Positions 372-30,677 of a stretch of 64,000 nt of DNA are shown piece by piece (the first letter of the stretch is position 1; every line of letters begins with the position of its first letter). The DNA comes from a virus. The notes beneath the pieces are model-generated. The model ran no database searches. It was not told where the DNA came from and saw nothing but the letters and a program-made list of their open reading frames with translations. The stretch spans positions 102,690 to 166,689 of the IMG/VR virus record IMGVR_UViG_3300025015_000011; one strand, written 5' to 3'. Position numbers and translations under genes: made by a program.

Positions 372-379
372 TATTTATA
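372..379 (-). promoter_or_regulatory. T4-type late promoter TATAAATA upstream of the sheath gene
   Basis: Exact TATAAATA on the minus strand. Confidence 0.75.
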
Positions 380-980
380 TTTTATGCCAAAGTTCATCAA
401 GGTCTATTTTAGTATTTACTCTGATTCCATAATATTCTGTGCAGATTAACATTATTTCAGACCTTGAACGAAATCCATCTACTAAATTTTTATTGGTGTA
501 TTCACCAGATTCAACAAATTCTTCCATAGAACCATCAGGATATTCATCTTTAAGGATATCTTTAGCATAATCATTGGCATATAAGAAATCTTTAAATTCA
601 ACAAATACATCTGATATATGAGGGCTCCACCAATATGTATAACCATCTACTGGGAAGATTATATAAGGTTCTTTGCCTTTAGCATAAAATTGAGTATCCA
701 TTTCAGACCCAGTTGAAAATACTGCTTTAGCCCTTATATTAGATTCACCATACAATTTTTCAAAAGCAGCATTAAAATCTTCCTGCATTTCAGGACGGGA
801 GTTTTTAGGCTTTCTATCAATCCTTGGTACTAATTTTATAAATTCATCTGTTTGATTAGGTATGCCTCTATAAAGATAATATTGTTTTGACTCTTTTAAG
901 AATTGTGAACAGTCCTGTTTGATTAATTCAATAATATTCTCTTGATTTAGATCTTCTGTTAAAAATCTTTTAAAGTTCAT
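375..980 (-). CDS. Putative virion-internal ADP-ribosyltransferase-like protein (family A paralog)
   Basis: N-term MNFKRFLTE; YLYRG...AVFSTGS...YIIFP..Y.YWWSP...SEIML; paralog of the five genes at 20781-25292. Confidence 0.55.
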   Translation of the reverse strand: MNFKRFLTEDLNQENIIELIKQDCSQFLKESKQYYLYRGIPNQTDEFIKLVPRIDRKPKNSRPEMQEDFNAAFEKLYGESNIRAKAVFSTGSEMDTQFYAKGKEPYIIFPVDGYTYWWSPHISDVFVEFKDFLYANDYAKDILKDEYPDGSMEEFVESGEYTNKNLVDGFRSRSEIMLICTEYYGIRVNTKIDLDELWHKI

Positions 981-3760: not shown

Positions 3761-3761
3761 A

Positions 3762-5911: not shown

Positions 5912-6303
5912 TAAACCATCTTAATCTTTGGTTGGATTGTCAAAACTGCTATTCCTTTTGTCAAAATTTGAGAAGAATCATATTGAGTTATACTTAAAAG
6001 AATTCCTGAATTATCATAACTTGAGGAAATAAAATACCCATATATATCAGTCCAATCTTGATATATGGGAGAAAAGGTAATATCACTGGCAGTATAAATT
6101 AAATCATCTCCAAGTACCCAAGTTCCCTTTGGTATAACAATTCTTTTATATTCCTTTAAATTCTTCAATTCATAAAAATTAAATGAACTTAAAGTAAAAT
6201 TATTCTCTCTTATCTTGCCTGTACTTGTCCAAAGACCTAACCACAAGTCATAGGTATTCAGATAATTCTCTAATATTTCTTTTTTACCTTCATTTATCAA
6301 CAT
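5911..6303 (-). CDS. Putative structural protein (paralog of 5333-5911)
   Basis: MLINEGK..IL, LWLGLW, YKRIVIPKGTW, DWTDIYGYF. Confidence 0.5.
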   Translation of the reverse strand: MLINEGKKEILENYLNTYDLWLGLWTSTGKIRENNFTLSSFNFYELKNLKEYKRIVIPKGTWVLGDDLIYTASDITFSPIYQDWTDIYGYFISSSYDNSGILLSITQYDSSQILTKGIAVLTIQPKIKMV

Positions 6304-6878
6304 TATTCAAATGCTCCAAAAATTGACTCATCACCTATTTTTTCCACTACTATACCACTGACTGCTTGTGATATAGCACTGTTATCATTTATGTTATCTG
6401 TAATATTTTCATAATTAGTTATGGTGTTCAATGTATTGAGAAATTCCTCTCCAGAAATATCTGCTGCTTTTAATTTAATTTCCCACACAAATTTCTTTTG
6501 AAGGAATATAGCATTCTCTTTATCTATATCTGTAACGATGAATAACCGTGACATATAATCAACCCAAACATAATCACCAGCCTTTGGGTCTACACCAACA
6601 GAATCTGAAAATTCTTTAACATCAATACTTATTGAAAGAATATCATTTGAACCTAAACCAAAACGAGTCAAAATCCAGTCTTCTTGGATTGTCTCTGTGT
6701 ATGCTTTTAATTTATATTCTGCTTCAATTAAAGGTTTAGAATCTTCACTATAGATAGGTTCTTTACTTTCATTAAAACTAGTAATATAGTATTTAATGTT
6801 AATCCCAAAGATTTGAATTGCTTCTCTGGTGACAGCTTCAAAAAGAGCTCTATCTGGGTTATTAGTGAAGTTAAACAT
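6303..6878 (-). CDS. gp14: Neck protein
   Basis: EAIQIFGINIKY, EPIYSED, TRFGL, PKAGDYV; follows gp13. Confidence 0.88.
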   Translation of the reverse strand: MFNFTNNPDRALFEAVTREAIQIFGINIKYYITSFNESKEPIYSEDSKPLIEAEYKLKAYTETIQEDWILTRFGLGSNDILSISIDVKEFSDSVGVDPKAGDYVWVDYMSRLFIVTDIDKENAIFLQKKFVWEIKLKAADISGEEFLNTLNTITNYENITDNINDNSAISQAVSGIVVEKIGDESIFGAFE

Positions 6879-6909
6879 TATTTCCTTTTAAATATTTATG
6901 ATGAATGTA

Positions 6910-7647
6910 CTATCCAATTAGAAATCCAAGGGGTTCTGACTCATAATTTATCATTTCATTCATCCAATATTCTCTTTCTTGTATACCTTCATTCTTTAAA
7001 GAATCCCCATTTAAAGTTCCACCTCCAGGAAGAGGTATACCATTATACTTGCCCCAAATTGTACCAAGGACTATTTTAGTATAAGCAAGAGCTAAATTCT
7101 TAACTACTGGTTCATCAAATATAGTTGTTTTAACATTATGTTCCCAGAAAGAATAAACAGTTAAGATACCAGTTAAGGCCTTTGTTGGTTTAGGTGTTAG
7201 TTTTAATTCTCTCGTATATTTGTTATAATTGACAAAGAACCTTGCTGCTAATTTATCTTTCATCAATTCAATATATTCTTGAGCTAATTCCCATGTAACC
7301 ATTTCCATAGGAGCATGACCTGCAAGCATGCCTTCATTGTAAAGTATATTCTCTACTGTAAATAATTGAGTAATTGAACCACCAAAAGAATAGGAAGTAT
7401 CAAAATCTATTATGCTAGCAACATTTTCATTTAAAGTATAAGTATCTATACCAGGAGCTAAATCTATAATAAGAGCATTTTGGTAAGTTACACCACCAGA
7501 ATATCTCTGAAACCATTGAATAGCATCATTGATATTATCTAAGATGACAGAATCATCTATCTCCAGGTTAATCGTAGGATAGCCTAATTTCCTTTTAATC
7601 CAAGAGCATAGTTTGATACTACTATCAATCTCTGTCCTTATTGACAT
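6910..7647 (-). CDS. gp13: Neck protein
   Basis: RKLGYPTINLEID...INDAIQWF; KYNGIPLPGGGTLNG. Confidence 0.93.
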   Translation of the reverse strand: MSIRTEIDSSIKLCSWIKRKLGYPTINLEIDDSVILDNINDAIQWFQRYSGGVTYQNALIIDLAPGIDTYTLNENVASIIDFDTSYSFGGSITQLFTVENILYNEGMLAGHAPMEMVTWELAQEYIELMKDKLAARFFVNYNKYTRELKLTPKPTKALTGILTVYSFWEHNVKTTIFDEPVVKNLALAYTKIVLGTIWGKYNGIPLPGGGTLNGDSLKNEGIQEREYWMNEMINYESEPLGFLIG

Positions 7648-7922
7648 TTTTCTTCCTCTAGTTTTTGTATAAATTTAAATCCATCAACTTTATTTTTTAT
7701 TGATTTATGAATTAAATAAGCAGTAATGTTTTCTTTTTGAACAGCATCTTTTATACAACCATAAGCATTACCATTAACTAATACTTTTATAGCTTTACCA
7801 TGACCTGGCCCTTTATTTGCATCACTAATCTTTTTTCTAACTTCAGGTCTTTTATTAGGATTTTTCTCACTTTTCATTATTTTACTTAATTTTTCACGAG
7901 TTATTTCTGTTCTTACACCCAT
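7638..7922 (-). pseudogene. Homing endonuclease remnant (NUMOD3-type DNA-binding motifs only) fused to a gp13-like start
   Basis: NPNKRPEVRKKISDANKG motif; no GIY-YIG/HNH domain; starts MGVRTEIT, compared with gp13 MSIRTEID. Confidence 0.6.
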
Positions 7923-7924
7923 TA

Positions 7925-8236
7925 TTAATCCTTTTTATAGATAGAGTCTAATTTCTGCTCTAACACTTCTTTTTCTTTGAGAGACCTTCTATACTCAGCT
8001 TTCATCTCAGATGGCATTGTTTTATTTTGATATCTATCCTCAATGCTCCAAATTCTATTTTGTAAATGAGTTATATTATCTTCAAGTATTTTAATGTCAA
8101 GGCGCTTTTCAATCATTTTGACTTCTTCTGCATGAGCATACTTCAAGTCAAGAAAAGAATAAGCACCCCAGGTAATACCAATTATGGTTGCTAATGTTCC
8201 TAGAACTCCAATAGCTTGTTTCCAATATTTAGACAT
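7925..8236 (-). CDS. Small membrane-anchored coiled-coil protein
   Basis: One N-terminal hydrophobic segment followed by a charged helix. Confidence 0.55.
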   Translation of the reverse strand: MSKYWKQAIGVLGTLATIIGITWGAYSFLDLKYAHAEEVKMIEKRLDIKILEDNITHLQNRIWSIEDRYQNKTMPSEMKAEYRRSLKEKEVLEQKLDSIYKKD

Positions 8237-8707
8237 TTACTTACCCTTTAAGAATTGTAACATCTCATTCGTATCGACTTCAGGGACGTCATTTGGTTTA
8301 AATTCTAAATCAGCTTTAGTTGGCCAATACTCTTTAGGAAAGTAATTTTTATCAGCCAAGGACTTACTATCAAGGTCTACTTTCCTTATATAAAGGGCTT
8401 GTGGATTTGCTTTGGCTAAATTGATTAATAATTCGACTACCTCACCAGTGACAGGTTGACCAGCTGGGATGAGAACAAATCTACCAGTGTAATCTATTAC
8501 TTCAAAATTGCTAGCATTATCCTTTTCAAATTCCTTCTGAACCTTTTCTGGGGTTAAGAATTCAGCACCAGGTCCTGGCTTCATAGAAGTCTTTTCTCTT
8601 GATTTCTGCCCTACTTGACTTATTAACTGATTTAACCTGGATTTAATTTTTGAATTAAGCCCTGATTTTTGAACTGTTACTGATATTGATTTGAGTGTAT
8701 CTGTCAT
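8237..8707 (-). CDS. Hypothetical late protein
   Basis: ORF with AGGAG RBS and late promoter at 8741-8748. Confidence 0.65.
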   Translation of the reverse strand: MTDTLKSISVTVQKSGLNSKIKSRLNQLISQVGQKSREKTSMKPGPGAEFLTPEKVQKEFEKDNASNFEVIDYTGRFVLIPAGQPVTGEVVELLINLAKANPQALYIRKVDLDSKSLADKNYFPKEYWPTKADLEFKPNDVPEVDTNEMLQFLKGK

Positions 8708-8740
8708 GTTAAACTCCTTAGTTATTTAACCTCTTGCAAA

Positions 8741-8748
8741 TATTTATA
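8741..8748 (-). promoter_or_regulatory. Late promoter TATAAATA
   Basis: Exact motif heading the neck/terminase operon. Confidence 0.75.
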
Positions 8749-8802
8749 ATTCTATGCCATAATAATGATAGAAATTGAACATTTTGAGGAAGAATAATGT
8801 TC

Positions 8803-8831
8803 TTGACAAACAATTCTTCTTGTATTATAAT
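8803..8831 (+). promoter_or_regulatory. Sigma70-consensus early promoter
   Basis: TTGACA-17 bp-TATAAT, perfect consensus. Confidence 0.85.
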
Positions 8832-14281: not shown

Positions 14282-15457
14282 TTAAAATATACCTGTGAAA
14301 TCAACATTTACTTGGCGGAAATAATTAGCTGCGCCGAATAAATTGTCAGTGATAGCATATCTGCTCATTATACCAACGACTGGGTAGAAGCTTTGGACTT
14401 CCATAGTCTTGGAAATTACAACTGGAACATAAGGGCTGTATATAATACCAGCATCAGCAGCTCCAGGCCCTTTGTAACCAACCAAGGCATAATCTGAAGT
14501 TGCAAATGTATCCCTATAAACATCAAACCTACCTTCAATGCTACCAACCTTTGCTATACCAGGAGCTAACTCCATTGGTGAGCTATTGGTAGGTGAAAGC
14601 AAGAAGTTGCCTATGGCATCAAGAGCTGTTACAACATTTGAAGAAGCTATGATGAAGTTACCAGGGCCTCTCCTAGATGTAATAGCTATTTGGTTTGCTT
14701 CCTTTACTAACCTTGTGTAGAGAGTTCTGAACTTCTCCTGCTCCCACTGACCATCGCTGGAATTGACAACATAAGTTGAAAGGTTGCCATTACCAACTGT
14801 GCAAAGGCCCTTCATCTTATTGACAAGTTCCCTGTCGATCTCAGCAGAGATTTCATACTGAAGCATGGTGATAAGCTCAGATTCAATATCAACACCGTGC
14901 ATGTTCTTGAGGTCCTGTGCAGACTCAAGTGACCACCTGCTCTTTAACTTCCTGGTCTTGGCTGTAACTGTGGTTGACTCAATTGACAGACCTGCTTCAA
15001 GAATTTCAGCAGTAGCTGTTGGGTCAACAGAGCTTAAACGCTCACCAGCTGAGGTTGCAACACCACCAGCACCAGAAGCTGGGTTGGCTGTAGCATCACC
15101 AGAATAACCCTGAACAACTGAGTTATAACCGATTTCAGTACCATCAGAAGCACCACTCTTATACTTAAACCTTAAAGCATATGCAAGACCAACAGGGCCA
15201 GTCATAGGCTGAACTGAAACAAGGTTGTTAGCTATAAGATTTGGGAAAATCCTACGAGTTAAAGGCATTACTATTTTCTTGAAATCAGCTACGTCAGTTG
15301 AAAGAGTGGAACCAGCTTCAGTTATATACCTGGCTTCATTCTCTAATAGCATAGCAGTATTCCTTGCAACATTCACATCGGATATCTCAGAGATTTTAAA
15401 CCCCTTCTTATCCCATTTCTCGACCAGTTGATCGAGCTCCGGTTTCCTAAGATTCAT
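14282..15457 (-). CDS. gp23: Major capsid protein
   Basis: RRIFPNLIANNLVSVQPMTGPVGLAYALR, TAKTRKLKSRWSLESAQDLKNMHGVD, DAGIIYSPYVP; probable maturation site YITE47|A. Confidence 0.98.
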   Translation of the reverse strand: MNLRKPELDQLVEKWDKKGFKISEISDVNVARNTAMLLENEARYITEAGSTLSTDVADFKKIVMPLTRRIFPNLIANNLVSVQPMTGPVGLAYALRFKYKSGASDGTEIGYNSVVQGYSGDATANPASGAGGVATSAGERLSSVDPTATAEILEAGLSIESTTVTAKTRKLKSRWSLESAQDLKNMHGVDIESELITMLQYEISAEIDRELVNKMKGLCTVGNGNLSTYVVNSSDGQWEQEKFRTLYTRLVKEANQIAITSRRGPGNFIIASSNVVTALDAIGNFLLSPTNSSPMELAPGIAKVGSIEGRFDVYRDTFATSDYALVGYKGPGAADAGIIYSPYVPVVISKTMEVQSFYPVVGIMSRYAITDNLFGAANYFRQVNVDFTGIF

Positions 15458-16376: not shown

Positions 16377-16694
16377 TTATGCTTTTTCTATCATTCTTCT
16401 TATTGCTGCCATTGAACCAGGCTGGTTGGTATCTTCCATGAATTTTCTAATCCAAGGAATAAAATATGACTTGAGCTGACCTTCAGCAGGATTTCCCCCA
16501 TATATATCCATTTTTGAAAGTTGTCTTGCTAAATTTATAGCTTCCCAGAGGTGATTTTCTATTTCTTCAATCATTTCTATAGCATCATCAACTGGTCCAT
16601 TCCTGGCTTCATCCAGATTACCAGCTATTGATTCTAGCTCTTCAAAGTCTTCCTTTACCAGAATTCTGCCCAATCTCTTTAAAATGTCACTCAC
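16377..16694 (-). CDS. Small acidic head-cluster protein
   Basis: Between gp21 and gp22; N-term MSDILKRLGRILVKE. Confidence 0.6.
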   Translation of the reverse strand: MSDILKRLGRILVKEDFEELESIAGNLDEARNGPVDDAIEMIEEIENHLWEAINLARQLSKMDIYGGNPAEGQLKSYFIPWIRKFMEDTNQPGSMAAIRRMIEKA

Positions 16695-17005
16695 TTGTTC
16701 ATCCCCTTTCCTAATTTAGTTATTAACTTTCTCAATTGGTATTTATGAGATCTTTCATCTTCTCTAATCTCTTCTAAAACTTTGACAATCTCAGACCAGA
16801 ATTCTTTTGTTATCCTACCATTATTAAACATTTTATCTATTTGTTTAATAGAATCAGTATAAGAATATTCAGCAGTATCTTCTTCAGCCATTAGCTTATT
16901 TAAGACTAGGTCTAATCTACGTAAGCTTCTATCATCTGGATGAGATACCTCTTGCTCAATTGGAGTTTCTTCTAAGAAGTTATTTAGTTCGTTTAAGATA
17001 TCCAT
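16691..17005 (-). CDS. Small acidic head-cluster protein
   Basis: N-term MDILNELNNFLEE. Confidence 0.6.
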   Translation of the reverse strand: MDILNELNNFLEETPIEQEVSHPDDRSLRRLDLVLNKLMAEEDTAEYSYTDSIKQIDKMFNNGRITKEFWSEIVKVLEEIREDERSHKYQLRKLITKLGKGMNK

Positions 17006-17283
17006 TATTTTTTATCCCACCCTAAAATTTTAACCTTAACAGAATATTCATCTCCTGTGGCAATTGAAATAATATCATCACCTAAATCTCTTACTAGTGC
17101 TCTACCTTTCATTGTTTGTATAAGAGCCTTTTTAGCATCTTGTACATCATCACCCTCTTCAATTGGCTCAATATCTACATCAAATTCATCAGGAACTTCC
17201 GATGTTCCTACTCCTGAATCTAATGATGGAAGAGTAGCAAGGTCTTCATTTAGAATTTTATCTATTCTATCTATTAATTTCAC
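17005..17283 (-). CDS. Small acidic head-cluster protein
   Basis: N-term MKLIDRIDKILNE. Confidence 0.6.
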   Translation of the reverse strand: MKLIDRIDKILNEDLATLPSLDSGVGTSEVPDEFDVDIEPIEEGDDVQDAKKALIQTMKGRALVRDLGDDIISIATGDEYSVKVKILGWDKK

Positions 17284-17960
17284 TTACTTTTAATCTCCTT
17301 AATGAATTCTTGTATAGCTTCAATTAAATATAACTGAGCATTATCTTTTGGAATCTTTTTAAATCTCTTCTCTAGACCTTTGACTGGAGCTTCAAAGACT
17401 TCTCCCTTTTCATTCATCAACCATTTTCTGTTCTCATATAAGGCTTCCATAAATGCGCCTGGGGCACTTGGGTCTGCAACTATATCCACAGTTATAAGTT
17501 TAAAGTCTTCTGAAACCTCTCCATCTTCTGCTACATCACCCAAGCCTCTTGAAGAAACTCCAAGTTGATAACCATCTTTGACGAGAGTCTGAGCAACAAG
17601 ACCCATCGGTGTATTAGCTAACTTGGCTTTACCATAAAACACATCACCTTCACATCTAAGTTCTTTTATATAGTGAGATATCCTATCAAGATTGACAGTT
17701 GGTGATTCTGGATGGTTAAGCTCTCCGCCAGCTCTGTTATTCTTTATCTTATCTGAGGTAAAGGACTGAACTTCCCTTTCAATTACATTCTTCTTATAGA
17801 CCCTGCCATTCTTATTTCTTTGTTCTGAAACCATGAATGGTCCTGCGAGATAAATAGATTTAGATTGTGCCCCAGTCCCATCAGATTCCATTATAGTTTC
17901 AGCTTTTAATAGCTTAGGGTCCATTATCTCAGACAGAAGTCTGAGAGGCTTAGATATCAT
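17280..17960 (-). CDS. gp21: Prohead protease
   Basis: NKNGRVY, GELNHP, LGVSSRGLG, VDIVADPSAPGA. Confidence 0.97.
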   Translation of the reverse strand: MISKPLRLLSEIMDPKLLKAETIMESDGTGAQSKSIYLAGPFMVSEQRNKNGRVYKKNVIEREVQSFTSDKIKNNRAGGELNHPESPTVNLDRISHYIKELRCEGDVFYGKAKLANTPMGLVAQTLVKDGYQLGVSSRGLGDVAEDGEVSEDFKLITVDIVADPSAPGAFMEALYENRKWLMNEKGEVFEAPVKGLEKRFKKIPKDNAQLYLIEAIQEFIKEIKSK

Positions 17961-17986: not shown

Positions 17987-17994
17987 TATTTATA
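17987..17994 (-). promoter_or_regulatory. Late promoter TATAAATA for gp21
   Basis: Exact motif. Confidence 0.75.
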
Positions 17995-20014: not shown

Positions 20015-20175
20015 TTAGAATATTAAATATTTAAATAATTTATCTGCTTCTTTAGCTTCTTGACTATTATACCCAAAGGCTATTTCTATTGCAGTACTTG
20101 CATCTAATAATCTTTTAACAGGAACAGTTGTTCCTTTTGGTAGCCCTCAATTATTAAAAATAATTGAAAATTCAT
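20015..20175 (-). pseudogene. Frameshifted remnant of a tagged array gene
   Basis: AAGGA RBS, MNFQLFLIIE..., stop at 20104; a second frame continues LPKGTTVPVKRLLDASTAIEIAFG... to 20015. Confidence 0.45.
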
Positions 20176-20184
20176 TTCTTTTCC

Positions 20185-20631
20185 TTATTTTAAATTAGTT
20201 AACTTGAAGCCAAAAGCTCCCTTTTCTCTCCAACCTATATAGAACTTAAACTTCCCTTGCCATGATATAAATGGTCTGAATAAGAAAACAACAAATATTA
20301 AAGCCCATATAATAGACCCATACCATAATGTATTTGCAAGTAGTAAAGCTAATATGATACTTTGTAACCTATCTGGAATATAAAAGAACCAAGTAAGATT
20401 GAGGCCTCCGCCTGTTTTAAATACTTCTCCAGGGGCAATTCCAAGTTGAGTCTTATCTTCTATATCTCTTATACCTATTATATAATTAGTGAAGTTATGA
20501 AGAGGATTCCTTAAATACATCCAATAGAATTGACGCTTCCGAAGTGGCCAAGTTTTCTCATACCAGTCTGGAGCCACTGGGTCATCATTTTTAAACCACC
20601 AGATAGGGTTAAGCTTCTGATACCATTTCAT
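20185..20631 (-). CDS. Trp-rich membrane-associated hypothetical protein (likely start MKWYQ)
   Basis: AAGGAG before ATG at 20631; WMYLRNPLHNF motif; hydrophobic segment. Confidence 0.6.
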   Translation of the reverse strand: MKWYQKLNPIWWFKNDDPVAPDWYEKTWPLRKRQFYWMYLRNPLHNFTNYIIGIRDIEDKTQLGIAPGEVFKTGGGLNLTWFFYIPDRLQSIILALLLANTLWYGSIIWALIFVVFLFRPFISWQGKFKFYIGWREKGAFGFKLTNLK

Positions 20632-20737
20632 GTGTGTCTCCTTAATGTTCAAATAATTTGAACATACTTTAATCCTGAACAAACTCTTTCAAATATTTAT
20701 TGTTTCTTTAAGTCTCTTAATCTTGAACCATTAGGAC

Positions 20738-20791
20738 TTATACTAAGATATCTTGTGTTCCTTCTGTTATTATATATTGCTTAAAGGTCAT
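20738..20791 (-). pseudogene. 17-codon tag-only remnant MTFKQYIITEGTQDILV
   Basis: Same N-terminal tag and same 11-nt overlap with the upstream gene as intact array members. Confidence 0.5.
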
Positions 20792-21368
20792 CTATTTGAC
20801 CTTTTCGTAATTCCACACTAGAATATATACGGTCTATCCAGTCCAAGACGACATAGTGATTATTACGCACAGCATAATACTTGTCACAAAGAAGCATTAT
20901 TTCATTACCAGAACTAATAGCCTTTAGTAAATCTGTATTAATAAAAGTATGACTATTAATAATATCTGCTACAATATAATCAGACATGTCTTCTAGCTCT
21001 CCATAAAGGTCGTCAATGGTTGGACTCCACCAATAAGAATAATCACCAATTGGAAATATATTATATAGGGTTCCAAATGCTATAGCATTATCAGTGTGAC
21101 CTGTGCAAAATACAGCTCTAGATCTTATGTTGTCAACATTATACTTCTTAGCAAATTCTACATTAATAATATCATGATGTGACTTTTTCGTGTCTAGTGG
21201 TTTTCTATTACTACGAGGACTTATCTGTTTAACAGAATCTACTAGGCCTTTCATACCTCTATATAAAGATCTATTTTCAGATTCCTTAAGGAAAGGCATA
21301 CACTCTTTTACAATATCTACAGCGATTTGCCTATTATAATCTTCTGTTATAAATGATTTAAAGTTCAC
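20781..21368 (-). CDS. Family A ART-like virion protein
   Basis: MNFKSFITE; SLYRG, AVFCTGH, YWWSP, GNEIML. Confidence 0.55.
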   Translation of the reverse strand: MNFKSFITEDYNRQIAVDIVKECMPFLKESENRSLYRGMKGLVDSVKQISPRSNRKPLDTKKSHHDIINVEFAKKYNVDNIRSRAVFCTGHTDNAIAFGTLYNIFPIGDYSYWWSPTIDDLYGELEDMSDYIVADIINSHTFINTDLLKAISSGNEIMLLCDKYYAVRNNHYVVLDWIDRIYSSVELRKGQIDDL

Positions 21369-21940
21369 CAGAATTTCCTTCCTATATATTTTAAAATATC
21401 ATGAGCTTCATAATGAACTACATAATATTCCTTACATAGAAGCATTATTTCATTACCAGTATCCAGTGCTTCTTCTAAGTTAGTATTAATATACCCATTC
21501 GTTGGTAATTTTATAAAATTATAAAGGATTTCTGGAGTGACAAGATCTAACTGCTGTACTGTCATAGTTAAATCTGGAATTCCTTTTGACCACCAATATG
21601 AATAACCATCTACTGGGAAAACCTCATAAACAAAATTACTATTAGCAAAATAATTGGCATCTCCATAATTACCAGTGCAGAATACAGCCCTGCTCCTTAT
21701 ATCCTTAACTCCATAAGCCTTTTCAAAAGCTAAATTATAATAATCATGTACCCTTTCTTCTGTATCCCGAGGGGTTCTATCTGACCTTGGAACCATCAGA
21801 TTTATCTGGCCTTTGTTGGATTTAAGGCCTCTATACATTTTACCAGCAGAAGAAAGTCCTTTTAGAAATTGAGAACAATTCTTTATTATATCGTCTGCTA
21901 TAGGGGTTATAGCTTCATTTGTATATTCTTTAAAGTTCAT
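21365..21940 (-). CDS. Family A ART-like virion protein
   Basis: MNFKEYTNE; KMYRG, AVFCTGN, YWWS, GNEIML. Confidence 0.55.
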   Translation of the reverse strand: MNFKEYTNEAITPIADDIIKNCSQFLKGLSSAGKMYRGLKSNKGQINLMVPRSDRTPRDTEERVHDYYNLAFEKAYGVKDIRSRAVFCTGNYGDANYFANSNFVYEVFPVDGYSYWWSKGIPDLTMTVQQLDLVTPEILYNFIKLPTNGYINTNLEEALDTGNEIMLLCKEYYVVHYEAHDILKYIGRKFW

Positions 21941-23405
21941 TATTTTCTATATAGCTTTTTAATTTAATATTAATAGCTTCAATGACCTCAGGTCCATTAT
22001 TGAATCCATATTGATATAATTGTTTTCTAAATGTTAAATTATCTTCTAAATCAAAAATGGTATCTTCCAGGCCAGGTAAATTATCTAGCCAATGTTGTAT
22101 GTCGTCTTTACCATAATGAGAATTATTATAAGTACCACTTAAAGGATTATTAATAGTATCAAATATATTATTTACTAAGGTTAAAGATTCTTTAACTACT
22201 TTGCTACCTTCTTTTGGATTAACCTTAGTTGGGAATGTATATTCAATCCCTCTTATGTCAGCACTGAACTTACCACCAACCCACTTAGCGGTTTCTGGCC
22301 AGGCAGAATAACCACCATCCCCTAAAGAGAATATTCCACCCTTGAAAGTACCATTCTTAAACCTAGCACCAGGCTTAAAGATACCATTTTCAAAGGTTCC
22401 TCCATTAAATACCCCATCTTGGAATATACCATTTTTGAATGTTCCGGCTAAGAATATTCCTTTGAAGTTTCCATCATACCATTCTCCTGTAAAGCCTACA
22501 TAATAACCCTGGTCCTTCAACTTAGTAAAGGTCCCTGAGAACTTACACTGGTCGATATGAGGGAAGTTCTTTCCCAGCTCAGCTAAGGTCAGTCCACCGT
22601 CAAGTCCTTTTATCATATCCTTTATCTTATCATAGTTTATTGCAATAGAGTCTATAGAATCATCATCATAAAGTCTAGGGTGTTTATCGAAAGTTCCAAA
22701 CAGTCCTTCTTGCTTCTCATCTATCCAATCCTGTACAGCTTCTTTAAATCCAGGAACAGTAGTACCATAAACCTTTCTTTCTGGAACTAGATAGACTTCT
22801 TCATTGTCATTTATAAATGGTTTAATAAGGAATCGTCCTATAGGATAATTAATATTCTTATCATCAGCATTAATGAGATATGCTATCAAAGAACCTTCTT
22901 TTATATCATATGCACAAAACTTGGATAAAGACCCAGACTTTAAATCCATACAAGAAGTCCAACCTCTATCAGTACTCATTCCAGCTATGTCATATGGATG
23001 TCTGGATATAGCTACTATAGCTGTTTGTAATCTTGATGTTCTTCTGACTGGGTCTGATATGAACTTCTGATAAGCTTCTTTATAATAATTATCCGCTTCA
23101 AACTTCTTCATAGCCTTTTGAAGTATAGAACCTATCTTGAAGACTCTCTTATCATCACCATCTGTCTTCTTGGCTAAGCCATTACCATAATCAACTACTT
23201 CAAAACCTTCATAATATAAAACAGAATTGACATTATTTGGAATTGGTAGTTCAAATTTATCATCCATCTTCTTCTTTAAAGGTAAATAGATTCTATACTT
23301 ACCACCAAACCACTCAGAGTATCTAGTCTTATCCCAGTTCTTAGCATACCTCTTGGCCGAGGATAAGCTTAATTTTTCATTAAGTAAAAAAGTTTTAAAG
23401 CTCAT
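21930..23405 (-). CDS. Family B tagged protein (SRHPYDIAGMSTDRGWTSCM domain plus Gly-rich pentapeptide-like repeats)
   Basis: MSFKTFLLNE; paralog of 26353-28074; GTFKNGIFQDGVFNGGTFENGIF repeats. Confidence 0.6.
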   Translation of the reverse strand: MSFKTFLLNEKLSLSSAKRYAKNWDKTRYSEWFGGKYRIYLPLKKKMDDKFELPIPNNVNSVLYYEGFEVVDYGNGLAKKTDGDDKRVFKIGSILQKAMKKFEADNYYKEAYQKFISDPVRRTSRLQTAIVAISRHPYDIAGMSTDRGWTSCMDLKSGSLSKFCAYDIKEGSLIAYLINADDKNINYPIGRFLIKPFINDNEEVYLVPERKVYGTTVPGFKEAVQDWIDEKQEGLFGTFDKHPRLYDDDSIDSIAINYDKIKDMIKGLDGGLTLAELGKNFPHIDQCKFSGTFTKLKDQGYYVGFTGEWYDGNFKGIFLAGTFKNGIFQDGVFNGGTFENGIFKPGARFKNGTFKGGIFSLGDGGYSAWPETAKWVGGKFSADIRGIEYTFPTKVNPKEGSKVVKESLTLVNNIFDTINNPLSGTYNNSHYGKDDIQHWLDNLPGLEDTIFDLEDNLTFRKQLYQYGFNNGPEVIEAINIKLKSYIENNEL

Positions 23406-23976
23406 TATCTAAATCCTTTAATAATTCATCATTTTCTTTTATAGGTATAGCATAATAAGAATCACACAGTAACATAACTTCAGTATATTCATATTTAGTA
23501 ATAGCCAAGGTCAAGTCTGTGTCAATATAAAGGCCTTTTTTAACAATGTCAACCATATCTGAAAAATCTTCTATTCCAAGGGTTCTTTCTGATAACCATT
23601 CAAACAAATCATTAATCTTTTTAGACCACCAATATTCATAATGCCCTATTGGGAATATCCTGAACATTTTACCATAATAATTATTATCTTTAGTTCCAGC
23701 ACAGAATACAGCCTGACTTCTAATATTATCTACACCATGAATCTCCTTAAAGGCTTGATTGAAAGAATTATGAAAGGATAGCCTAGTATGTTTTGGATAT
23801 CTATCAGACCTTGATACTATCTTATTCAGAAGTTTTCCTGGATGAGGACTTTTAATCCCTCTATATAGACCTAGATTACCTACTTCATTAATGAACATAG
23901 TACAATCCCTTTGAAGTGTAGAAAGGATTTGTTCTTGAGTAATCTCTTCTGTTATAAAGGATTTAAAGTTCATCAT
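23395..23976 (-). CDS. Family A ART-like virion protein
   Basis: MNFKSFITE; GLYRG, AVFCAGT, YWWS, YTEVML. Confidence 0.55.
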   Translation of the reverse strand: MMNFKSFITEEITQEQILSTLQRDCTMFINEVGNLGLYRGIKSPHPGKLLNKIVSRSDRYPKHTRLSFHNSFNQAFKEIHGVDNIRSQAVFCAGTKDNNYYGKMFRIFPIGHYEYWWSKKINDLFEWLSERTLGIEDFSDMVDIVKKGLYIDTDLTLAITKYEYTEVMLLCDSYYAIPIKENDELLKDLDNEL

Positions 23977-24076
23977 ATATTAATTATTTATGCAAGTCCT
24001 TCTTCTATTGAACATGTTTCATCAAGTAATATAAGTCCTTCCAAGCACGAAGGTCCTGTGCAGTCTGAGCAAGGTT

Positions 24077-24718
24077 TTAATGACTATCAGGAACTGCCCA
24101 ATAAGAATTACAAATGAACATTATCTCCACACCAGACTTAATAGCTGATACCAAGTCAATATTCTTATAGTTAGCCCATTTTATAAATTCCACTATGGAA
24201 GGATATATTAATTCATCTACTTCAGGGCTTTTAAACAAACCTTCAGCCCATTTATAGTAGACCCAGAAAGAGCCAGCCTTAGGATATAACGGAAACCATA
24301 TGTCTTCTGCATCCTTATCAAAGAATCTGGACTTAGTATGGTCAGCCCACTTCCTAGAATAGTTAATGTCTAACACAGCATCAGACCACCAATAAGAATA
24401 ATCACCAATTGGATATATTTTGAATGGTTGGCCAAATTGGTTAGTAGACCCTTTGTCTCCTGTAGCAAATACACATGAAGATCTCAAGTCCATAACACTA
24501 TGGACTTCTTCAAAGGCTTTATTGAATAAGCGCATTATGTGGTTGCCCATACCTTTGGGCTTCCTATCTTTCCTCACTGGTAGCTTGACTGGTTGGTTTA
24601 ACCCATCTTCAATCCCCCTGTACACTGCATAGCCGTGCGTCTCTTCAATGAACTTAGCTGAGTCATGATTTATTGTAGCATCATATAGTCCTTCTGTTAT
24701 AAATGATTTAAAGTCCAT
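24077..24718 (-). CDS. Family A ART-like virion protein
   Basis: MDFKSFITE; AVYRG, CVFATGD, YWWS, GVEIMF. Confidence 0.55.
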   Translation of the reverse strand: MDFKSFITEGLYDATINHDSAKFIEETHGYAVYRGIEDGLNQPVKLPVRKDRKPKGMGNHIMRLFNKAFEEVHSVMDLRSSCVFATGDKGSTNQFGQPFKIYPIGDYSYWWSDAVLDINYSRKWADHTKSRFFDKDAEDIWFPLYPKAGSFWVYYKWAEGLFKSPEVDELIYPSIVEFIKWANYKNIDLVSAIKSGVEIMFICNSYWAVPDSH

Positions 24719-25292
24719 CTAAGCCCTCAGCCACAGCGTAATATTCTTCACATTGAAAAAGGATTTCATTTCCACTTCTAAGACCCTTAGCTAAATCTTT
24801 CATCTTATAAGATGAGACTAATTTCTTCATGGCCTTTTGTTTATCACTCAGTTCAGGCCCGGCACCCTTATATTCTAATTCAGTCATAACAGCATCCCAT
24901 TCTATATAAGCATCTTCTACTTTAGGACTCCATATATAAGAGAAGTATCCAATTGGATATATTTTATAAACATCTCCATAATCATTAGCAACATCTATAT
25001 TACCAGAACTGACTACAGATATAGATCTTATCTTTGGAATATGGAACTTCTCCTCAAAAGCTTTATTGAATAAATTAAAGTATTCATTATTGCCCAACAA
25101 GGGCTTTCTATTCTTAATAACCTTAATCTTATATAGCCCAGGTATAACCCTTTTAAAGTATTTGGTATTAGCATAGCCTTTATATAACTCCAGGGCGTGG
25201 GACTCTTTTAGAAAAGGATAACAATCAGCTGATATTATCTTATTAATCTTATCAGGCTCATTATCTTCGGCTACATATGATTTAAAGTCCAT
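24708..25292 (-). CDS. Family A ART-like virion protein
   Basis: MDFKSYVAE; ELYKG, SVVSSGN, YIWSP, GNEILF. Confidence 0.55.
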   Translation of the reverse strand: MDFKSYVAEDNEPDKINKIISADCYPFLKESHALELYKGYANTKYFKRVIPGLYKIKVIKNRKPLLGNNEYFNLFNKAFEEKFHIPKIRSISVVSSGNIDVANDYGDVYKIYPIGYFSYIWSPKVEDAYIEWDAVMTELEYKGAGPELSDKQKAMKKLVSSYKMKDLAKGLRSGNEILFQCEEYYAVAEGLDGL

Positions 25293-26363
25293 CTAATCCA
25301 CCTTTATATTTATCTTAATACCATTCTTCTTCATCCATGTAGCAAAGTCCTTTTCAATCCATACATCTTCTATTACAGCTGGCACTGCACCAGTATCTAC
25401 TATAACTTCATTCTGAGCAAAGAATCTAAATTGTTTCTTGAACTTCATAGGGAATTCAGTAAAGTCTATTATGATATTATCGACTGGGACTTCTGCTCGT
25501 ACTACAAAGTTTATACTAGCTTCAGCTTGACCCTTAGTAAAGTTCTGAGCTATCTCTTTATGAGTAGACCAAGACGATTCTTTTCCTCTTTTAACAATTA
25601 CCTTTCCAGCTGGCACTTGGCCAAGTGTAATGCCAGCATATCTCTTTAACTTATCATTGACATCTTTAAATGTAACTTTGGAGTAATCACCCCAATCATC
25701 AAATTGAATTGAGAACCCTCTATAGAGAATCTTAAACTTATATGGTTTGGTTAAGGACTTCCAGTACTCTTTATGTTTAAGTCTCTTACCTGGGTCTTCA
25801 GTATATCTTATTAAGTCCTCTATATAATGCTCAGGTATATCAAATGTAAGGTCTGGTTTATCTCCAGTATGATACCTCTTAGCATTACCATCTACTAACT
25901 TAGCCTTTAACATAGTAGCAAATGGAATGTGGACTTCTCCTTTATATTCAGAAGCCAGGCCATCATATAGTTTAAAGAACTTGTCAGTATCTATTAGATG
26001 ACCCAGCATATAAGCAGACTTATCCTTTTTAAAGTATTTAGATAAGTCCCCAGCATCTACAGGCTTCCCAAAGTATTCATTAGCTTTAGCTATATCCAAT
26101 ACTTTATTCTTAATGAGTAAAGTAAAATCTTCTACACTCCAAGTAAATATCCTTTTAGCGTCTACCTCATATATGTAATTGTATCTAGAAGAAGCATTAG
26201 CAGAATGACCAAGTAAGGACTTATAGCTCTTTAAGGTATCTGCATATACTAGTATAATATGAGTATTCCCTAATTTAGCTAATCTTCTTGGTTCTATCTC
26301 GTCTACTTCTATATCTGAGGCTAAGTAATATTCCTCATTGAGTATAAATGATTTAAAGTTCAT
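25293..26363 (-). CDS. Tagged protein with C-terminal R-S-E ADP-ribosyltransferase domain (Alt/Mod-like)
   Basis: True start MNFKSFILNE at 26363; ILYRG...ESSWSTHKEIAQNF...AQNEVIV. Confidence 0.7.
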   Translation of the reverse strand: MNFKSFILNEEYYLASDIEVDEIEPRRLAKLGNTHIILVYADTLKSYKSLLGHSANASSRYNYIYEVDAKRIFTWSVEDFTLLIKNKVLDIAKANEYFGKPVDAGDLSKYFKKDKSAYMLGHLIDTDKFFKLYDGLASEYKGEVHIPFATMLKAKLVDGNAKRYHTGDKPDLTFDIPEHYIEDLIRYTEDPGKRLKHKEYWKSLTKPYKFKILYRGFSIQFDDWGDYSKVTFKDVNDKLKRYAGITLGQVPAGKVIVKRGKESSWSTHKEIAQNFTKGQAEASINFVVRAEVPVDNIIIDFTEFPMKFKKQFRFFAQNEVIVDTGAVPAVIEDVWIEKDFATWMKKNGIKINIKVD

Positions 26364-28074
26364 GGTCCTCTTTCCACTTAGCAAAATCAGTATAGGCCAA
26401 GTCCTTCTTAAGTAGTTTTTCAACATTAGTATGTAAATCACTTTCTTTTTCTACCCATTCAGAATACAGCTTAGTACTTTCAACATCATAAATGACCTTC
26501 ACATCATCCATCTTCACTTCATACTCACTACGAAAATCTTGGGTATCTTTCAGGAATTGGACCAGCAATGGATGTTTTAAATTAGCAGTCTCTTCATCCA
26601 TCTTATCAGACTCAGCATTTACTATCTTCTGTCTCTCAGACCAAGACATTCCATCTTTAATAAGGTCTTCTAGTCTCTTTTCAAACTTAAGCTCCTGTTG
26701 GGCTAATAGTTCTGTCAGGTCTTGGTCATACTTCTTCTTAAATGGGGCTATCTGTTTTTCATACTCAGCCGTCAGCTCATCAGTAGTACTTTTAAAGTCT
26801 TCTTTAAGATCGGAATTTAATTCAGTCTGCGCAGAAGTCAGCGTTCTTAGCTTCTGCGTTGCATCTGACTTATGATAATTTACTATCGCTCCAGCCTCTT
26901 GGGGATGGAGCTTGGTAGGGATAGTAAAATACTTAGACCCAACGACGACCTCAACCTTACCACTTATCCACTTAGCATCTGGATGGAAGTAAACTTCTTT
27001 AAGAACTATAGTAGCTCCATCTACAGTGCCACTAAGGAACTCCGCTTTTTGAATAATTCCACCACTGAAAGTCCCTCCTATTATTTGGCCACTGAAGTCC
27101 CCAGCCAGCCATTCCCCATCATAGAACTTAAGTGACTGTGTAACTTTGTTCCAGCCTATGACTGCATCTTGGAACTTAGCCTCTGCAGATAGTTGTTGGC
27201 CTAGTATCTCAAGACTAAGTCCATCTCTTAGTTCTCTCACTGACTTCTTAAGCTCATCCAGGTTTCTAATTATTATTGAATTCTTTTTTGAATCTTGATA
27301 GAGGTCAGGATGTATAGTAAACTTACCAAAGATTCCCTTCTGCTTCTCATCTAACCAATCCTGTACTACTTCAGCGAACCCTGGCATATCTGTACCATAG
27401 ACTTTAGGCTCTGGGACTAAGTAGACCTGTCCCTCATCTGAGATGAAAGGCTTGATAGCTATCCTTCCAATAGGGTGGTTGATATTCTTATCTTCTTTGT
27501 TGACTAAGTACGCTACTATGGTACCTTCCTTGACATCGTAAGCACAGATATGTCTGAACGTTCCATGATGGAGGTTCATGCAGCTTGTCCAACCTCGGTC
27601 AGTGCTCATTCCAGCTATGTCATATGGGTGGCGACTTAGTACTACCATCGCTGAGGTCTTCTTGCCACTTCTCTGAGGGTCTGACTGGAAGTTCTTAAGC
27701 TCTTTCTCAACCTTAGTCTTGAATCTAGAGTCTTGAGTCTTCTTAGCTGCTTGCTGAAGAACTGAGCCTATCTTCAAGACTCTCCTATCTTTGCCACTGG
27801 CGCCTGACCTCTTAGCGGTTCCAGCTCCATAGTCTACTACCTCATAGCCTAAGTAAGTAAGTATTTCTTCTAAGTCGGCTGGGACAATGGCTGCTTTCTT
27901 CTGAGCCTCTGCTGGAAGTTCCAAGTAGATGCGGTACTTACCACCAAACCACTCTGAATAGCGCTCCTTAGCCCAGTTCTTAGCATACTTCTTGGCAGTA
28001 CTGAGGGCTAACCGTTCTAGTACTAGCCAGTCCTTGAATGCTAGCCTCTCACTTAAGGAAGGACTTTTACTCAT
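26353..28074 (-). CDS. Family B tagged protein with C-terminal coiled coil
   Basis: AFKDWLVLE tag; RYSEWFGGKYRIYL and SRHPYDIAGMSTDRGWTSCM identical to 21930-23405. Confidence 0.6.
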   Translation of the reverse strand: MSKSPSLSERLAFKDWLVLERLALSTAKKYAKNWAKERYSEWFGGKYRIYLELPAEAQKKAAIVPADLEEILTYLGYEVVDYGAGTAKRSGASGKDRRVLKIGSVLQQAAKKTQDSRFKTKVEKELKNFQSDPQRSGKKTSAMVVLSRHPYDIAGMSTDRGWTSCMNLHHGTFRHICAYDVKEGTIVAYLVNKEDKNINHPIGRIAIKPFISDEGQVYLVPEPKVYGTDMPGFAEVVQDWLDEKQKGIFGKFTIHPDLYQDSKKNSIIIRNLDELKKSVRELRDGLSLEILGQQLSAEAKFQDAVIGWNKVTQSLKFYDGEWLAGDFSGQIIGGTFSGGIIQKAEFLSGTVDGATIVLKEVYFHPDAKWISGKVEVVVGSKYFTIPTKLHPQEAGAIVNYHKSDATQKLRTLTSAQTELNSDLKEDFKSTTDELTAEYEKQIAPFKKKYDQDLTELLAQQELKFEKRLEDLIKDGMSWSERQKIVNAESDKMDEETANLKHPLLVQFLKDTQDFRSEYEVKMDDVKVIYDVESTKLYSEWVEKESDLHTNVEKLLKKDLAYTDFAKWKEDHEL

Positions 28075-28330
28075 ATTTCTTCATTAACTTCCTTACTTCA
28101 TCTCTTACATGGCCATCAAATGTTGTTGTTATTACTTTACCACTCTGTAGGGCTTTTGCTAGGTCTGCATCTATTTTCTTTACTTCTCTTATAAATCCTC
28201 TCCATGAATCTTCATCTAGGTCTGGTGCTATCCCTGCTACTTCTAACTGGTTCTTTATTGACTTAACCCAAGATGTTGCGTCTGATGCTTCTTCATTTAG
28301 GACTTTGTTAATCTTCTCTAAGATATTCAT
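28067..28330 (-). CDS. Small head-cluster protein
   Basis: N-term MNILEKINKVLNE. Confidence 0.6.
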   Translation of the reverse strand: MNILEKINKVLNEEASDATSWVKSIKNQLEVAGIAPDLDEDSWRGFIREVKKIDADLAKALQSGKVITTTFDGHVRDEVRKLMKKYE

Positions 28331-28570
28331 TTATATCTTCTCCGGGAATTTTGTTTTAAGTAACCATTGTGCTTGCCAATCTGATATATCATATTCTTTA
28401 TTCAACTTCTTTATTATATCTTCATCTGGAACTGAGTTCTTTCTCCAGCCCTTTATTTCCAGTTCAATAGTCCTTTTAAGAAATAAGTCCAGTTCATCCC
28501 AGAACTTCTTACCAGCCCAGATAGATGAATCTGTTGATAAGGTCTTTTCAATTTTCTCTAGGATATCCAC
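28331..28570 (-). CDS. Small head-cluster protein
   Basis: N-term MDILEKIEKTL. Confidence 0.55.
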   Translation of the reverse strand: MDILEKIEKTLSTDSSIWAGKKFWDELDLFLKRTIELEIKGWRKNSVPDEDIIKKLNKEYDISDWQAQWLLKTKFPEKI

Positions 28571-29091: not shown

Positions 29092-30630
29092 TTATTGTAT
29101 CTTTTCCTTTTCTATGTTCGGATTCCCTGTGAGTAGAGGTTTGTTTTTCTTGGCCTCTTTATCTTCTTCTGGTGATTCTTCCTCTTCTTCAGCATCTGGG
29201 GCTTTGCCTGTTGCTTGGTTCTTGAGCATTTCCTTTACCTCTTTAACCTTGTCATCTGAGAACTTCATTATATCTCTATAAAGGAATTCTACTGGGAATA
29301 TATCATCCTTGAACTCAATCAAGTCCTTCATTATATCTATACGGGCTCTATACATTTCAAGGTCTTTCAGTTCTTTCCAGGCATTGTTCTCATTGAACTG
29401 AATAGATATCTTAGTCCTGTTAAGGTTATATTGTTTGTACAGTCCTTTTAATTGAAGGTGAGTAAAGAATACTTGATAAATGAATTCTAAGAATCTGCCA
29501 CGGATTTTATCTACCCACTTGGCAAATTTAACTTCTTCCCTTGATACTTCATTAGACCTACCAGGGTTATATGGTGTTTCAGGTGTAAGTCTCAGCTGAG
29601 GAATCTTTAGAGCTTTATAAAGCTTCTTGAGAAAATATGTTATATCTTCTATTTGTCCAAGATTATCTGCACCTGGAAGAGTTTCTACCCTTGAGCCTTG
29701 ACCATTATCTCTTGTAGGGAAGTAAAAAGATTCTTCCATGTTCATCACATCTTTACCTGAGTCAATGTCACCAGTAGAGGGATTGTATATTTTCTTATTC
29801 CTCGTCCTCGCTATTAGTGATTTGATATATTCATCTGCTTTATTCTTCGGAAGCTTACCCACATCTATATAGAATACTCTACGTTCTGGTGCCCTGGTTA
29901 TCCTGTAAACAAGTAAAGCATTCTCCATCCACTTTAACTGACGATAAGCTACCTTAGCTCTTTCAAGATATGAATAAGCCAAGTTCTTTTGGAAGTCTAC
30001 TATCCCTGAATTGATATAAGCTATCTGAGCTGGTTCAAATACTATTTCATTTCCTGACCTTCTCGCCTTTTGTGGTGATTGTGAAACTATTGATGTTAAG
30101 TCCTGAGTGAACTTGATTGGGTCTTGGTTATCATCCCAATCAACTTTCATTGTGTATGCTGGTAAATACTGAACACCTTGAAGTCCTTTTTCTTTCTTTT
30201 CAGGATTGACCATGAGCTCAGCATATAGTTCACCTTCTATATAGAACTTCCTGAACAAGTCACTGGCTGTAGTATCAAAGTCAAGAACTTTATTGATAAC
30301 ATAATCAAATTCCTTTTGAAGATTTTGAACAACATTTTCATTCTCAGCCAAGTCTGTATCATTTATTCTTAATGAAAGAATCTGATTATCTTCATCAGGC
30401 GATATTGCTTCAAATACAATTTCATCTACAGCATCACCTATCTCCGGGAATTGGCTCATTTCTTTATACTCTTGATGAAGAGAGCGTTTTTCAGATGTGA
30501 TTGCATAAATGGTGTTGGAAAGATACTCGTACCCAGTTGCGCTTATTTCTGAGACGCCTTGAGCCTCTCCTTCATTCTTGTGATAGGGGGTCAGGCTTTT
30601 GAAAATCTTTGATAATAAACCTTCACTCAT
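29092..30630 (-). CDS. gp20: Portal vertex protein
   Basis: YRITRAPERRVFYIDVGKLPK, ETLPG..NLGQIEDI.YF.KKLYKAL.IP, REEVKFAK. Confidence 0.97.
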   Translation of the reverse strand: MSEGLLSKIFKSLTPYHKNEGEAQGVSEISATGYEYLSNTIYAITSEKRSLHQEYKEMSQFPEIGDAVDEIVFEAISPDEDNQILSLRINDTDLAENENVVQNLQKEFDYVINKVLDFDTTASDLFRKFYIEGELYAELMVNPEKKEKGLQGVQYLPAYTMKVDWDDNQDPIKFTQDLTSIVSQSPQKARRSGNEIVFEPAQIAYINSGIVDFQKNLAYSYLERAKVAYRQLKWMENALLVYRITRAPERRVFYIDVGKLPKNKADEYIKSLIARTRNKKIYNPSTGDIDSGKDVMNMEESFYFPTRDNGQGSRVETLPGADNLGQIEDITYFLKKLYKALKIPQLRLTPETPYNPGRSNEVSREEVKFAKWVDKIRGRFLEFIYQVFFTHLQLKGLYKQYNLNRTKISIQFNENNAWKELKDLEMYRARIDIMKDLIEFKDDIFPVEFLYRDIMKFSDDKVKEVKEMLKNQATGKAPDAEEEEESPEEDKEAKKNKPLLTGNPNIEKEKIQ

Positions 30631-30663: not shown

Positions 30664-30677
30664 TATAAATATTTATA
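30664..30677. promoter_or_regulatory. Palindromic bidirectional late promoter TATAAATATTTATA
   Basis: Overlapping TATAAATA on both strands between divergent gp20 and gp4. Confidence 0.75.

Follow-up and report, generated by a model that had tools for sequence, protein, structure and literature searches.

In a 64,000-nucleotide stretch of viral DNA (bases 102,690-166,689 of the 166,689-bp IMG/VR virus record IMGVR_UViG_3300025015_000011; hereafter, the window), eight genes and two short remnants form an array on the minus strand between the portal and prohead protease genes. Each carries the code for a leader of 9-10 residues (the tag) that resembles the capsid targeting sequence (CTS) of phage T4. 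By analogy with T4, we think it likely that this array encodes the capsid cargo of a distant T4-like phage, that it is expressed late and that its proteins are packaged in the head and injected into the host. The source virus is an uncultured groundwater phage, distantly T4-like; the record has an estimated completeness of 72%, and the G+C (GC) content of the window is ∼33%.

The eight genes belong to three families, A (five genes), B (two) and C (one) (Table 1). A prior examination of the DNA, made without database searches (the sequence-only reading), had listed ten tags, and all of them are located on the minus strand as it described, with the pattern M-[NDST]-F-[KQ]-x-[FY]-[ILV]-x-E; in the case of B1 the tag is internal. 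The GC content of B1 is 0.42, compared to 0.30-0.38 in the other array genes, and its tag opens with a CTA Leu codon in place of a start codon. B1 may be a more recent acquisition or the carrier of a longer propeptide. The two remnants had been taken for tags and nothing else. This did not hold up, as their similarity to family A N-termini runs for 17 and 22 residues, with E-values that are weak (0.09 and 0.035) and come from a small search space. The idea that the remnants are tag-only relics of breaks at the tag was rejected, since both extend into family A sequence.

Table 1. Features of the array and its surroundings (positions within the window)
Feature	Position	Strand	Remarks
B1, 573 aa, family B	26353..28074	-	tag AFKDWLVLE at residues 12-20 (28015-28041), behind 10-residue extension
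C, 356 aa, family C	25293..26363	-	tag MNFKSFILNE (26334-26363)
A5, 194 aa, family A	24708..25292	-	tag MDFKSYVAE
A4, 213 aa, family A	24077..24718	-	tag MDFKSFITE
A3, 192 aa, family A	23395..23973	-	tag MNFKSFITE
B2, 491 aa, family B	21930..23405	-	tag MSFKTFLLNE; conserved N-terminal domain, then GxFxx repeats
A2, 191 aa, family A	21365..21940	-	tag MNFKEYTNE
A1, 195 aa, family A	20781..21368	-	GTG start; tag NFKSFITE
Remnant 1, 17 codons, resembles family A N-terminus	20738..20791	-	tag MTFKQYIITE
Remnant 2, 23 codons, resembles family A N-terminus	20104..20175	-	tag MNFQLFLIIE
A6, sixth family A paralogue, outside array	375..980	-	tag MNFKRFLTE; directly after large terminase gene
Major capsid protein gene	14282-15457	-	gp23-type
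Codons for Y-I-T-E/A, capsid residues 44-48	15314..15328	-	predicted maturation cut (slash)
Prohead protease (gp21 type)	17280..17960	-	Pfam Peptidase_S77 6.1e-29; phrog_207
Portal protein (gp20 type)	29092..30630	-	Pfam Portal_T4 3.8e-113; tblastn to cyanophage gp20
Secreted PLD-type protein, 172 aa	28570-29088	-	Pfam PLDc_2 4.1e-24; directly after portal gene
Two small acidic proteins, 79 and 87 aa	28067..28570	-	second leader type M-[DN]-I-L-E-K-I-x-K-x-L
Hydrophobic (membrane) protein, 148 aa	20185..20631	-	untagged; after remnant 1
Tailspike-like protein, 584 aa	18244..19998	-	untagged; GC 0.46; between array and protease gene
T4-type late-promoter-like TATAAATA	30670..30677	-	upstream of portal gene

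The T4 CTS is MKTYQEFIAE (PMC8442874), and suppressor experiments assign targeting to its residues 4 and 7 and processing to residues 8 and 10 (PMC9026906). When M-N-F-K-S-F-I-T-E is set against it, F3, F6, I7 and E9 correspond to Y4, F7, I8 and E10, the tag being one residue shorter. The proposal that the tag is CTS-like is thus borne out at the targeting positions as well as the processing positions. An aliphatic residue stands three places before the cut at Glu in 9/10 tags, with Thr taking its place in A2. Some metagenomic relatives of family A start with MKTFKQFLNE or MKTFKQYLSE, which have the T4 length, and the former is identical to the T4 CTS at 6/10 positions. The phage also encodes an S77 prohead protease of the gp21 type and a capsid protein with a matching cut site. 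Global alignment places the capsid YITE/A (the slash marks the cut) on FLTE/A of T4 gp23, a known maturation cut, and so confirms the claim of the sequence-only reading on this point.

In T-even phages, it is an established principle that a conserved CTS is present on a diverse set of internal proteins (PMC3012670, PMC9026906). In the 166,689-bp genome, there are 14 copies of the strict tag motif that begin with ATG, compared to 0.03 in 30 base shuffles, and they are nearly confined to the starts of open reading frames (ORFs). Outside the array, the tag is carried by A6 and by other ORFs of the genome (239, 219, 177 and 92 aa). Once stripped of the tag, the tagged proteins of the genome fall into at least six unrelated groups with no mutual similarity: family A (six members), family B (two), family C, a P-loop protein, a nucleotidyltransferase-like protein and the 92-aa protein. 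The 219-aa protein has a repeat region in common with the two family B members. The tag is a portable module, since it is found on unrelated families and since relatives of family C exist both with and without a leader.

The placement of the array is that of a head-gene locus. All on the minus strand, the gene order is portal, PLD-type protein, two small acidic proteins, B1, C, A5, A4, A3, B2, A2 and A1, followed by the 17-codon remnant, the 148-aa hydrophobic protein, the 23-codon remnant, the 584-aa tailspike-like protein, a 56-aa ORF and the protease, and then by three small acidic proteins, the scaffold and the capsid protein. The portal is ∼35% identical to cyanophage gp20 (tblastn), the scaffold protein is of the T4 type (Pfam, 5.5e-17), and the gp23-type capsid protein is encoded in the same window as portal, scaffold and S77 protease. 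Matches to Portal_T4 on one side and Peptidase_S77 on the other confirm that the array is wedged between gp20 and gp21, as had been stated. The corresponding order in T4 is 20, 67, 68, 21, 22, 23, and therefore the array occupies the site of T4's small prohead-core genes 67 and 68. Searches gave no close relative in the phage collection (megablast), no match of the portal among viral contigs and no match of the capsid gene in E. coli genomes. A near-identical sister contig of 166,914 bp exists, however, and three family A paralogues are located on a contig of 7,058 bp.

Leaders of this kind recur in relatives of the cargo proteins. For family A, whose nearest relatives come from Hainich groundwater metagenomes, the leader core is present within the first 14 residues in 29/37 relatives, compared to 0, 0 and 3 of 37 in control windows. 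For family B, counting by eye shows a short leader and then E/ALKPSQYR at the start of most of the 120 relatives listed; a strict leader pattern scored 34/117, versus 3, 10 and 1 in control windows. The metagenomic relatives of family C mostly have a leader as well (such as MRLKEYLLME, MRFLEYLNE and MRLINFLNEE), but some are without one. Among metagenomic contigs, L134 holds a tandem array of five family A genes (977-4314) with the uniform leader MKSTEFLxE, and L133 holds ∼12 tandem genes of several families (267-8826) with the uniform leader M[KR]IxELxE. Both are sediment or groundwater contigs in which leader-bearing genes are joined by ATGA overlaps, and many of these genes are family A paralogues; a P-loop protein akin to the tagged 239-aa ORF of this genome is also among them. 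A pattern search for family B in the viral contigs, made with patterns that were poor, gave no match.

The tag DNA pattern was found in at least 119 places in viral contigs, 81 of which are at the start of an ORF of at least 60 aa. These tag-headed ORFs encode DUF6267 proteins, cytidylyltransferase-like proteins and others, and the relatives of the DUF6267 protein are mostly in records of marine T4-like myoviruses and cyanophages. MNFKEFITE-type leaders are found on DUF6267 proteins (∼405 aa), cytidylyltransferase-like proteins (∼630-645 aa), a PAP2 protein and small ORFs, at loci L013, L016, L021, L042 and others in marine viral contigs and at locus L130 of phage C48C1. In one 1,379-aa protein, DUF6267, a cytidylyltransferase-like part and DUF5824 are fused behind a single leader.

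Virion data are available for relatives of two families. Atu_ph07 is an Agrobacterium jumbo phage of 490 kb, for which 131 virion proteins were identified by electrospray ionization tandem mass spectrometry (PMC6102473, Table S5). We mapped its records to Table S5 by exact match of computed molecular weights. Those detected include the family B relative gp394 (AUZ95153; 55.10 kDa, 18 unique peptides, 41% coverage), the family A relative gp408 (AUZ95167; 30.60 kDa, 6 unique peptides, 25% coverage) and gp407, the neighbour of gp408 (AUZ95166; 39.67 kDa, 17 unique peptides, 44% coverage) (PMC6102473). The identity of gp394 to family B is 40% over the N-terminal domain, and that of gp408 to family A is 40% over residues 19-122. 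The Atu_ph07 N-termini MQYTDLIEA and MKWHQLTED are leader-like, and both gp394 and gp408 start with a short leader that ends in Glu. Two of the three cargo families, A and B, thus have relatives that travel in the virions of Atu_ph07. The Atu_ph07 genes differ from ours in being scattered through a jumbo phage genome instead of lying in a tagged array, and the paper lists the proteins as hypothetical and mentions neither a leader nor processing (PMC6102473). The RsoM2USA paper, in which only ten abundant bands were identified, is uninformative for the cargo families.

What might the cargo do? None of the three families has a match in Pfam. Sequence searches of the PDB gave nothing useful for A or C and, for B, a weak pentapeptide-repeat hint to SV2C (E 0.13). 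The case for a function is clearest for family C. All 50 structural matches listed for its C-terminal half (∼169-356) belong to the ADP-ribosyltransferase superfamily, Tpt1/KptA included, with Z scores of 3.8-6.0; this ranking is a re-ranking of Foldseek's own candidates, with 79-146 residues aligned and a model of mean predicted local distance difference test score (pLDDT) 73. The matches include Vis, ExoS, C3, VIP2, Iota, cholera toxin A1 and ART2.2. R215, S263-S264-W265-S266 and Q317-x-E319, which make up an R-S-E signature, are invariant in 10/10 aligned sequences. Based on model and sequence, the C-terminal domain of family C appears to be an ADP-ribosyltransferase of the R-S-E type. Its leader is a detached segment of the model, with a pLDDT of 33.

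The family A model (A1, pLDDT 93.7), in which the tag runs on into helix 3-22, gave no Foldseek match below E 0.1. An all-against-all structural search returned 2aua (BC2332) as the best match (Z 6.4, root-mean-square deviation 3.9, 129 residues), followed at Z 3-4.7 by ∼12 proteins of the ADP-ribosyltransferase fold (Arr, diphtheria toxin, AvrPphF, DarT, exotoxin A, cholix, PARPs). Among named Atlas clusters, DUF2441 comes closest (0.84), which we take as no more than a lead, and R37, R55, R82 and E156 are invariant or nearly so. Judging by the model, an ADP-ribosyltransferase fold of the BC2332/DUF2441 type is probable for family A, although not settled. The family fills three Atlas clusters (806, 114 and 60 members); in the phage collection its matches are confined to five jumbo-phage records. 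For family C, tblastn found no match among 50,697 phage records, and searches of the phage collection revealed no sequence homology of A or C to T4 Alt. The N-terminal domain of family B is widespread in phages, with >427 database relatives and many different C-terminal parts. GxFxx repeats with a weak pentapeptide-repeat match follow it here, and family B looks like a widespread phage domain joined to a putative pentapeptide-like solenoid. The array proteins measure 191-573 aa and have isoelectric points of 5.5-6.8 (C, 8.8).

Neighbouring genes of the array are tightly joined. An 11-nt overlap (ATGNNCTTTAA) occurs at five junctions, B1>C, A5>A4, A3>B2, B2>A2 and A1>remnant, where the upstream proteins end in HEL, DGL, NEL, NEL and DDL, respectively, exactly the C-termini reported earlier. 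These overlaps had been called identical. They do agree in length and frame, but there are four different sequences: ATGAAC twice and ATGGAC, ATGAGC and ATGACC once each, all followed by TTTAA. Of the remaining junctions, A2>A1 has a 4-nt GTGA overlap, C>A5 is abutting (TAG-ATG) and A4>A3 has a 103-nt gap, so that genes overlap or abut at 7/8 junctions. Both alternative frames of ATG-AAC-TTT-AA hold a stop, TGA in frame +1 and TAA in frame +2, and therefore a tightly packed upstream gene that is out of frame ends within the tag. This accounts for the five 11-nt overlaps and the 4-nt overlap, while C and A5 abut because an in-frame neighbour needs a stop of its own. In L133 and L134, the overlaps are plain ATGA because the leaders start with M-K or M-R. 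Hence, the tag does supply the stop codon of the previous gene, as claimed, but this follows from its own sequence and is no separate device. The 11-nt overlap is mostly a by-product of tag sequence, tight packing and junction duplication. We rejected the excess of 11-nt junctions as strong evidence: 5/7 tight junctions compared to an expected 1/3 gives a binomial p of ∼0.045, which is not strong because the junctions are non-independent if they were duplicated along with the genes. Shine-Dalgarno-like runs are present within the last codons of upstream genes, and translational coupling along the array would be a reasonable consequence of the overlaps.

With respect to transcription, the T4-type late-promoter-like TATAAATA upstream of the portal gene is followed on the coding strand by the next copy at 17987-17994, before the protease gene, with none inside the array. 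The window contains 18 copies versus 13.3 expected, meaning that the 8-mer is not enriched and is informative through its positions alone. Nor did the array hold more promoter-like or terminator-like sites than shuffles did. These positions, of a non-enriched 8-mer, would fit co-transcription of the array late with the head genes.

It had also been proposed that cargo genes are gained and lost at the tag. Codon usage provides some evidence for this. Among the six family A paralogues, which are ∼40% identical, identical residues have the same codon in 71/74 cases (96%) in the tags, compared to 469/845 (56%) in the gene bodies. In the array tags, the choice falls consistently on the minority codons AAC, GAC and ACA (∼23%, 25% and 31% usage), while elsewhere in the genome the tag peptide is written in other synonymous codons, such as TTC, AAG, TCT and GAT. 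ATG-AAC-TTT-AAA-TCA-TTT-ATA is common to the unrelated families C and A, for which we estimate a chance of ∼1% under independent codon choice. The tag is a 35-nt direct repeat in five copies, and similarity between junctions begins just a few bases before the ATG. Homogenised codons, minority codons and the tag DNA shared by C and A would favour recombination or gene conversion at the tags, a proposal that is only partly supported. Three observations count against gain and loss at this site. The remnants break 8-13 codons past the tag (with weak statistics), and the 148-aa and 584-aa genes that follow them carry no tag. Furthermore, the database protein P0007, on a 1,010-bp metagenome contig, combines A1 residues 19-115 with A4 residues 103-213 in an exact chimera, joined not at the tag but in the gene-body motif PIGDYSYWWS, a 28-nt block common to A1 and A4. 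P0007 may be a real product of unequal crossover in the population or an assembly artefact.

The promoter-stem-loop cassettes, through which T4-type genomes undergo modular shuffling (PMC2839356), are likewise short repeated DNA blocks at gene boundaries and possible recombination sites. Their repeat is a promoter with a stem-loop, whereas here it is coding sequence, and the shuffling proposed here is deduced from codon homogenisation alone. One could go further and regard the ∼30-nt tag block as a three-in-one junction that serves as a capsid address, ends the upstream gene in whichever alternative frame and restarts translation, and acts as a homology patch for cargo duplication, swap and capture. 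The locus would then be a recombination-driven cargo integron for injected effectors in T4-like and jumbo phages. We consider this broader scheme doubtful.

How would a capsid-cargo locus work? Following T4, the leader would bind the scaffolding core during prohead assembly, the S77 prohead protease would then cut after the leader Glu, and the mature proteins would stay inside the head until they enter the host along with the DNA. With its enzymatic-looking cargo, the locus might act like T4 Alt, albeit with a leader of the internal-protein type. The array may have grown by tandem duplication, with recombination or gene conversion keeping the ∼30-nt tag block uniform.

Several of our observations weigh against this interpretation. 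The array proteins are near-neutral or acidic and larger, unlike T4 IPI-III, which are small and highly basic. The A2 tag ends in T-N-E and so lacks the aliphatic residue at the third place before the cut. Family A has modest structural scores, the same leader is also found on DUF6267 and cytidylyltransferase-like proteins of marine viral contigs, and the Atu_ph07 virions were purified by polyethylene glycol alone from a phage that is a distant jumbo relative (PMC6102473).

Another possibility is that the tagged proteins are late enzymes at work in the infected cell, their leader being no more than a short propeptide or an N-terminal helix, with no packaging or injection. Some of the tagged proteins do look like ordinary enzymes (the nucleotidyltransferase-like and P-loop proteins here, and DUF6267 and cytidylyltransferase-like proteins in the marine contigs), and the tag of the family A model is continuous with its helix. 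We nonetheless judge this explanation unlikely, in that the leader is found on unrelated folds, is detached in the poorly modelled N-terminus of family C and matches the T4 CTS at the targeting positions. Moreover, relatives of A and B were detected in Atu_ph07 virions, and the array sits within the head-assembly gene block.

Is the peptide perhaps secondary, and the tag mainly an RNA- or translation-level element, namely an initiation region that ends the upstream gene and couples translation? This would be in line with the near-invariance of the tag codons at synonymous sites (96% versus 56%), with stops in both alternative frames, with the 7/8 overlapping or abutting junctions and with the Shine-Dalgarno-like runs upstream. 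However, tags outside the array have the same peptide in different codons (TTC, AAG, TCT, GAT), relatives in other phages keep the pattern of aromatic, aromatic, aliphatic and Glu while DNA and letters change, and in L133 and L134 plain ATGA overlaps go with other leaders. These data make a primary role at the RNA level quite improbable. We regard it as very improbable indeed that the tag is a recognition leader for a modifying enzyme instead of a capsid signal, as no such enzyme was seen in L133 and L134, which are full of tagged genes end to end, and the tag, at just 9-10 residues, ends in a protease motif. The capsid-cargo interpretation remains the one that we favour.

The closest precedent is the set of T4 internal proteins that bear a CTS (PMC3012670, PMC9026906). 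Both systems have a leader of ∼10 residues with aromatics three apart and then Ile/Leu-x-Glu, carried by otherwise unrelated proteins, a gp21-type protease and a capsid with the same kind of cut site. The differences are that here the leader is one residue shorter, that eight genes form one tight overlapping array between gp20 and gp21 with no late promoters inside it, and that the cargo is larger, not basic and enzyme-like, with no sequence similarity seen to any T4 internal protein. T4 Alt, an ADP-ribosyltransferase that is packaged in the head, undergoes trimming by gp21 and is then injected (PMC9026906), is the closest functional analogue, given the ADP-ribosyltransferase fold predicted for family C (possibly A) and the protease-type leader in a T4-like phage. 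At the sequence level, no similarity to Alt is detectable, and up to seven such genes are present here, compared to one Alt. Our literature searches found no description of CTS-like leaders with these cargo families in distant T4-like or jumbo phages, of tandem overlapping arrays in the head-gene block, or of families A, B and C as such. The principle is known from T4; the cargo families and the array layout are new.

Some neighbouring genes are unusual in their own right. The PLD-type protein has an N-terminal signal-like hydrophobic stretch and the full PLD/Nuc motif HxK(x)4D(x)6GSxN, which is unusual in a head-gene block. The 584-aa tailspike-like protein combines a match to the endosialidase N-terminal extension with a phage tail-fibre C-terminus, and its gene is likely a recent foreign insert because its GC content is 0.46, compared to ∼0.33 around it. 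A second leader type, M-[DN]-I-L-x-K-I-x-x-x-L-x-E, is found on ∼10 small, mostly acidic ORFs, five of which flank the array and protease (window positions 16377-17283 and 28067-28570), the others being at genome positions 15076, 18787, 19029, 19479 and 21393. These small acidic proteins may be prohead core proteins like gp67 and gp68, and by eye they resemble the start of T4 gp67, MEGLIEAIK.

The shared stop codon is in itself of minor interest. The tag, on the other hand, is a possible portable packaging signal. If our interpretation is correct, the capsid-loading signal of T4 would be conserved far across the T4 superfamily, and the injected arsenal of such a phage could be read straight from its sequence. 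Families A and B, both of them large viral protein families without a Pfam entry, would gain a likely role. The arsenal itself would be a multi-gene set of ADP-ribosyltransferase-like enzymes that hit the host in the first seconds of infection.

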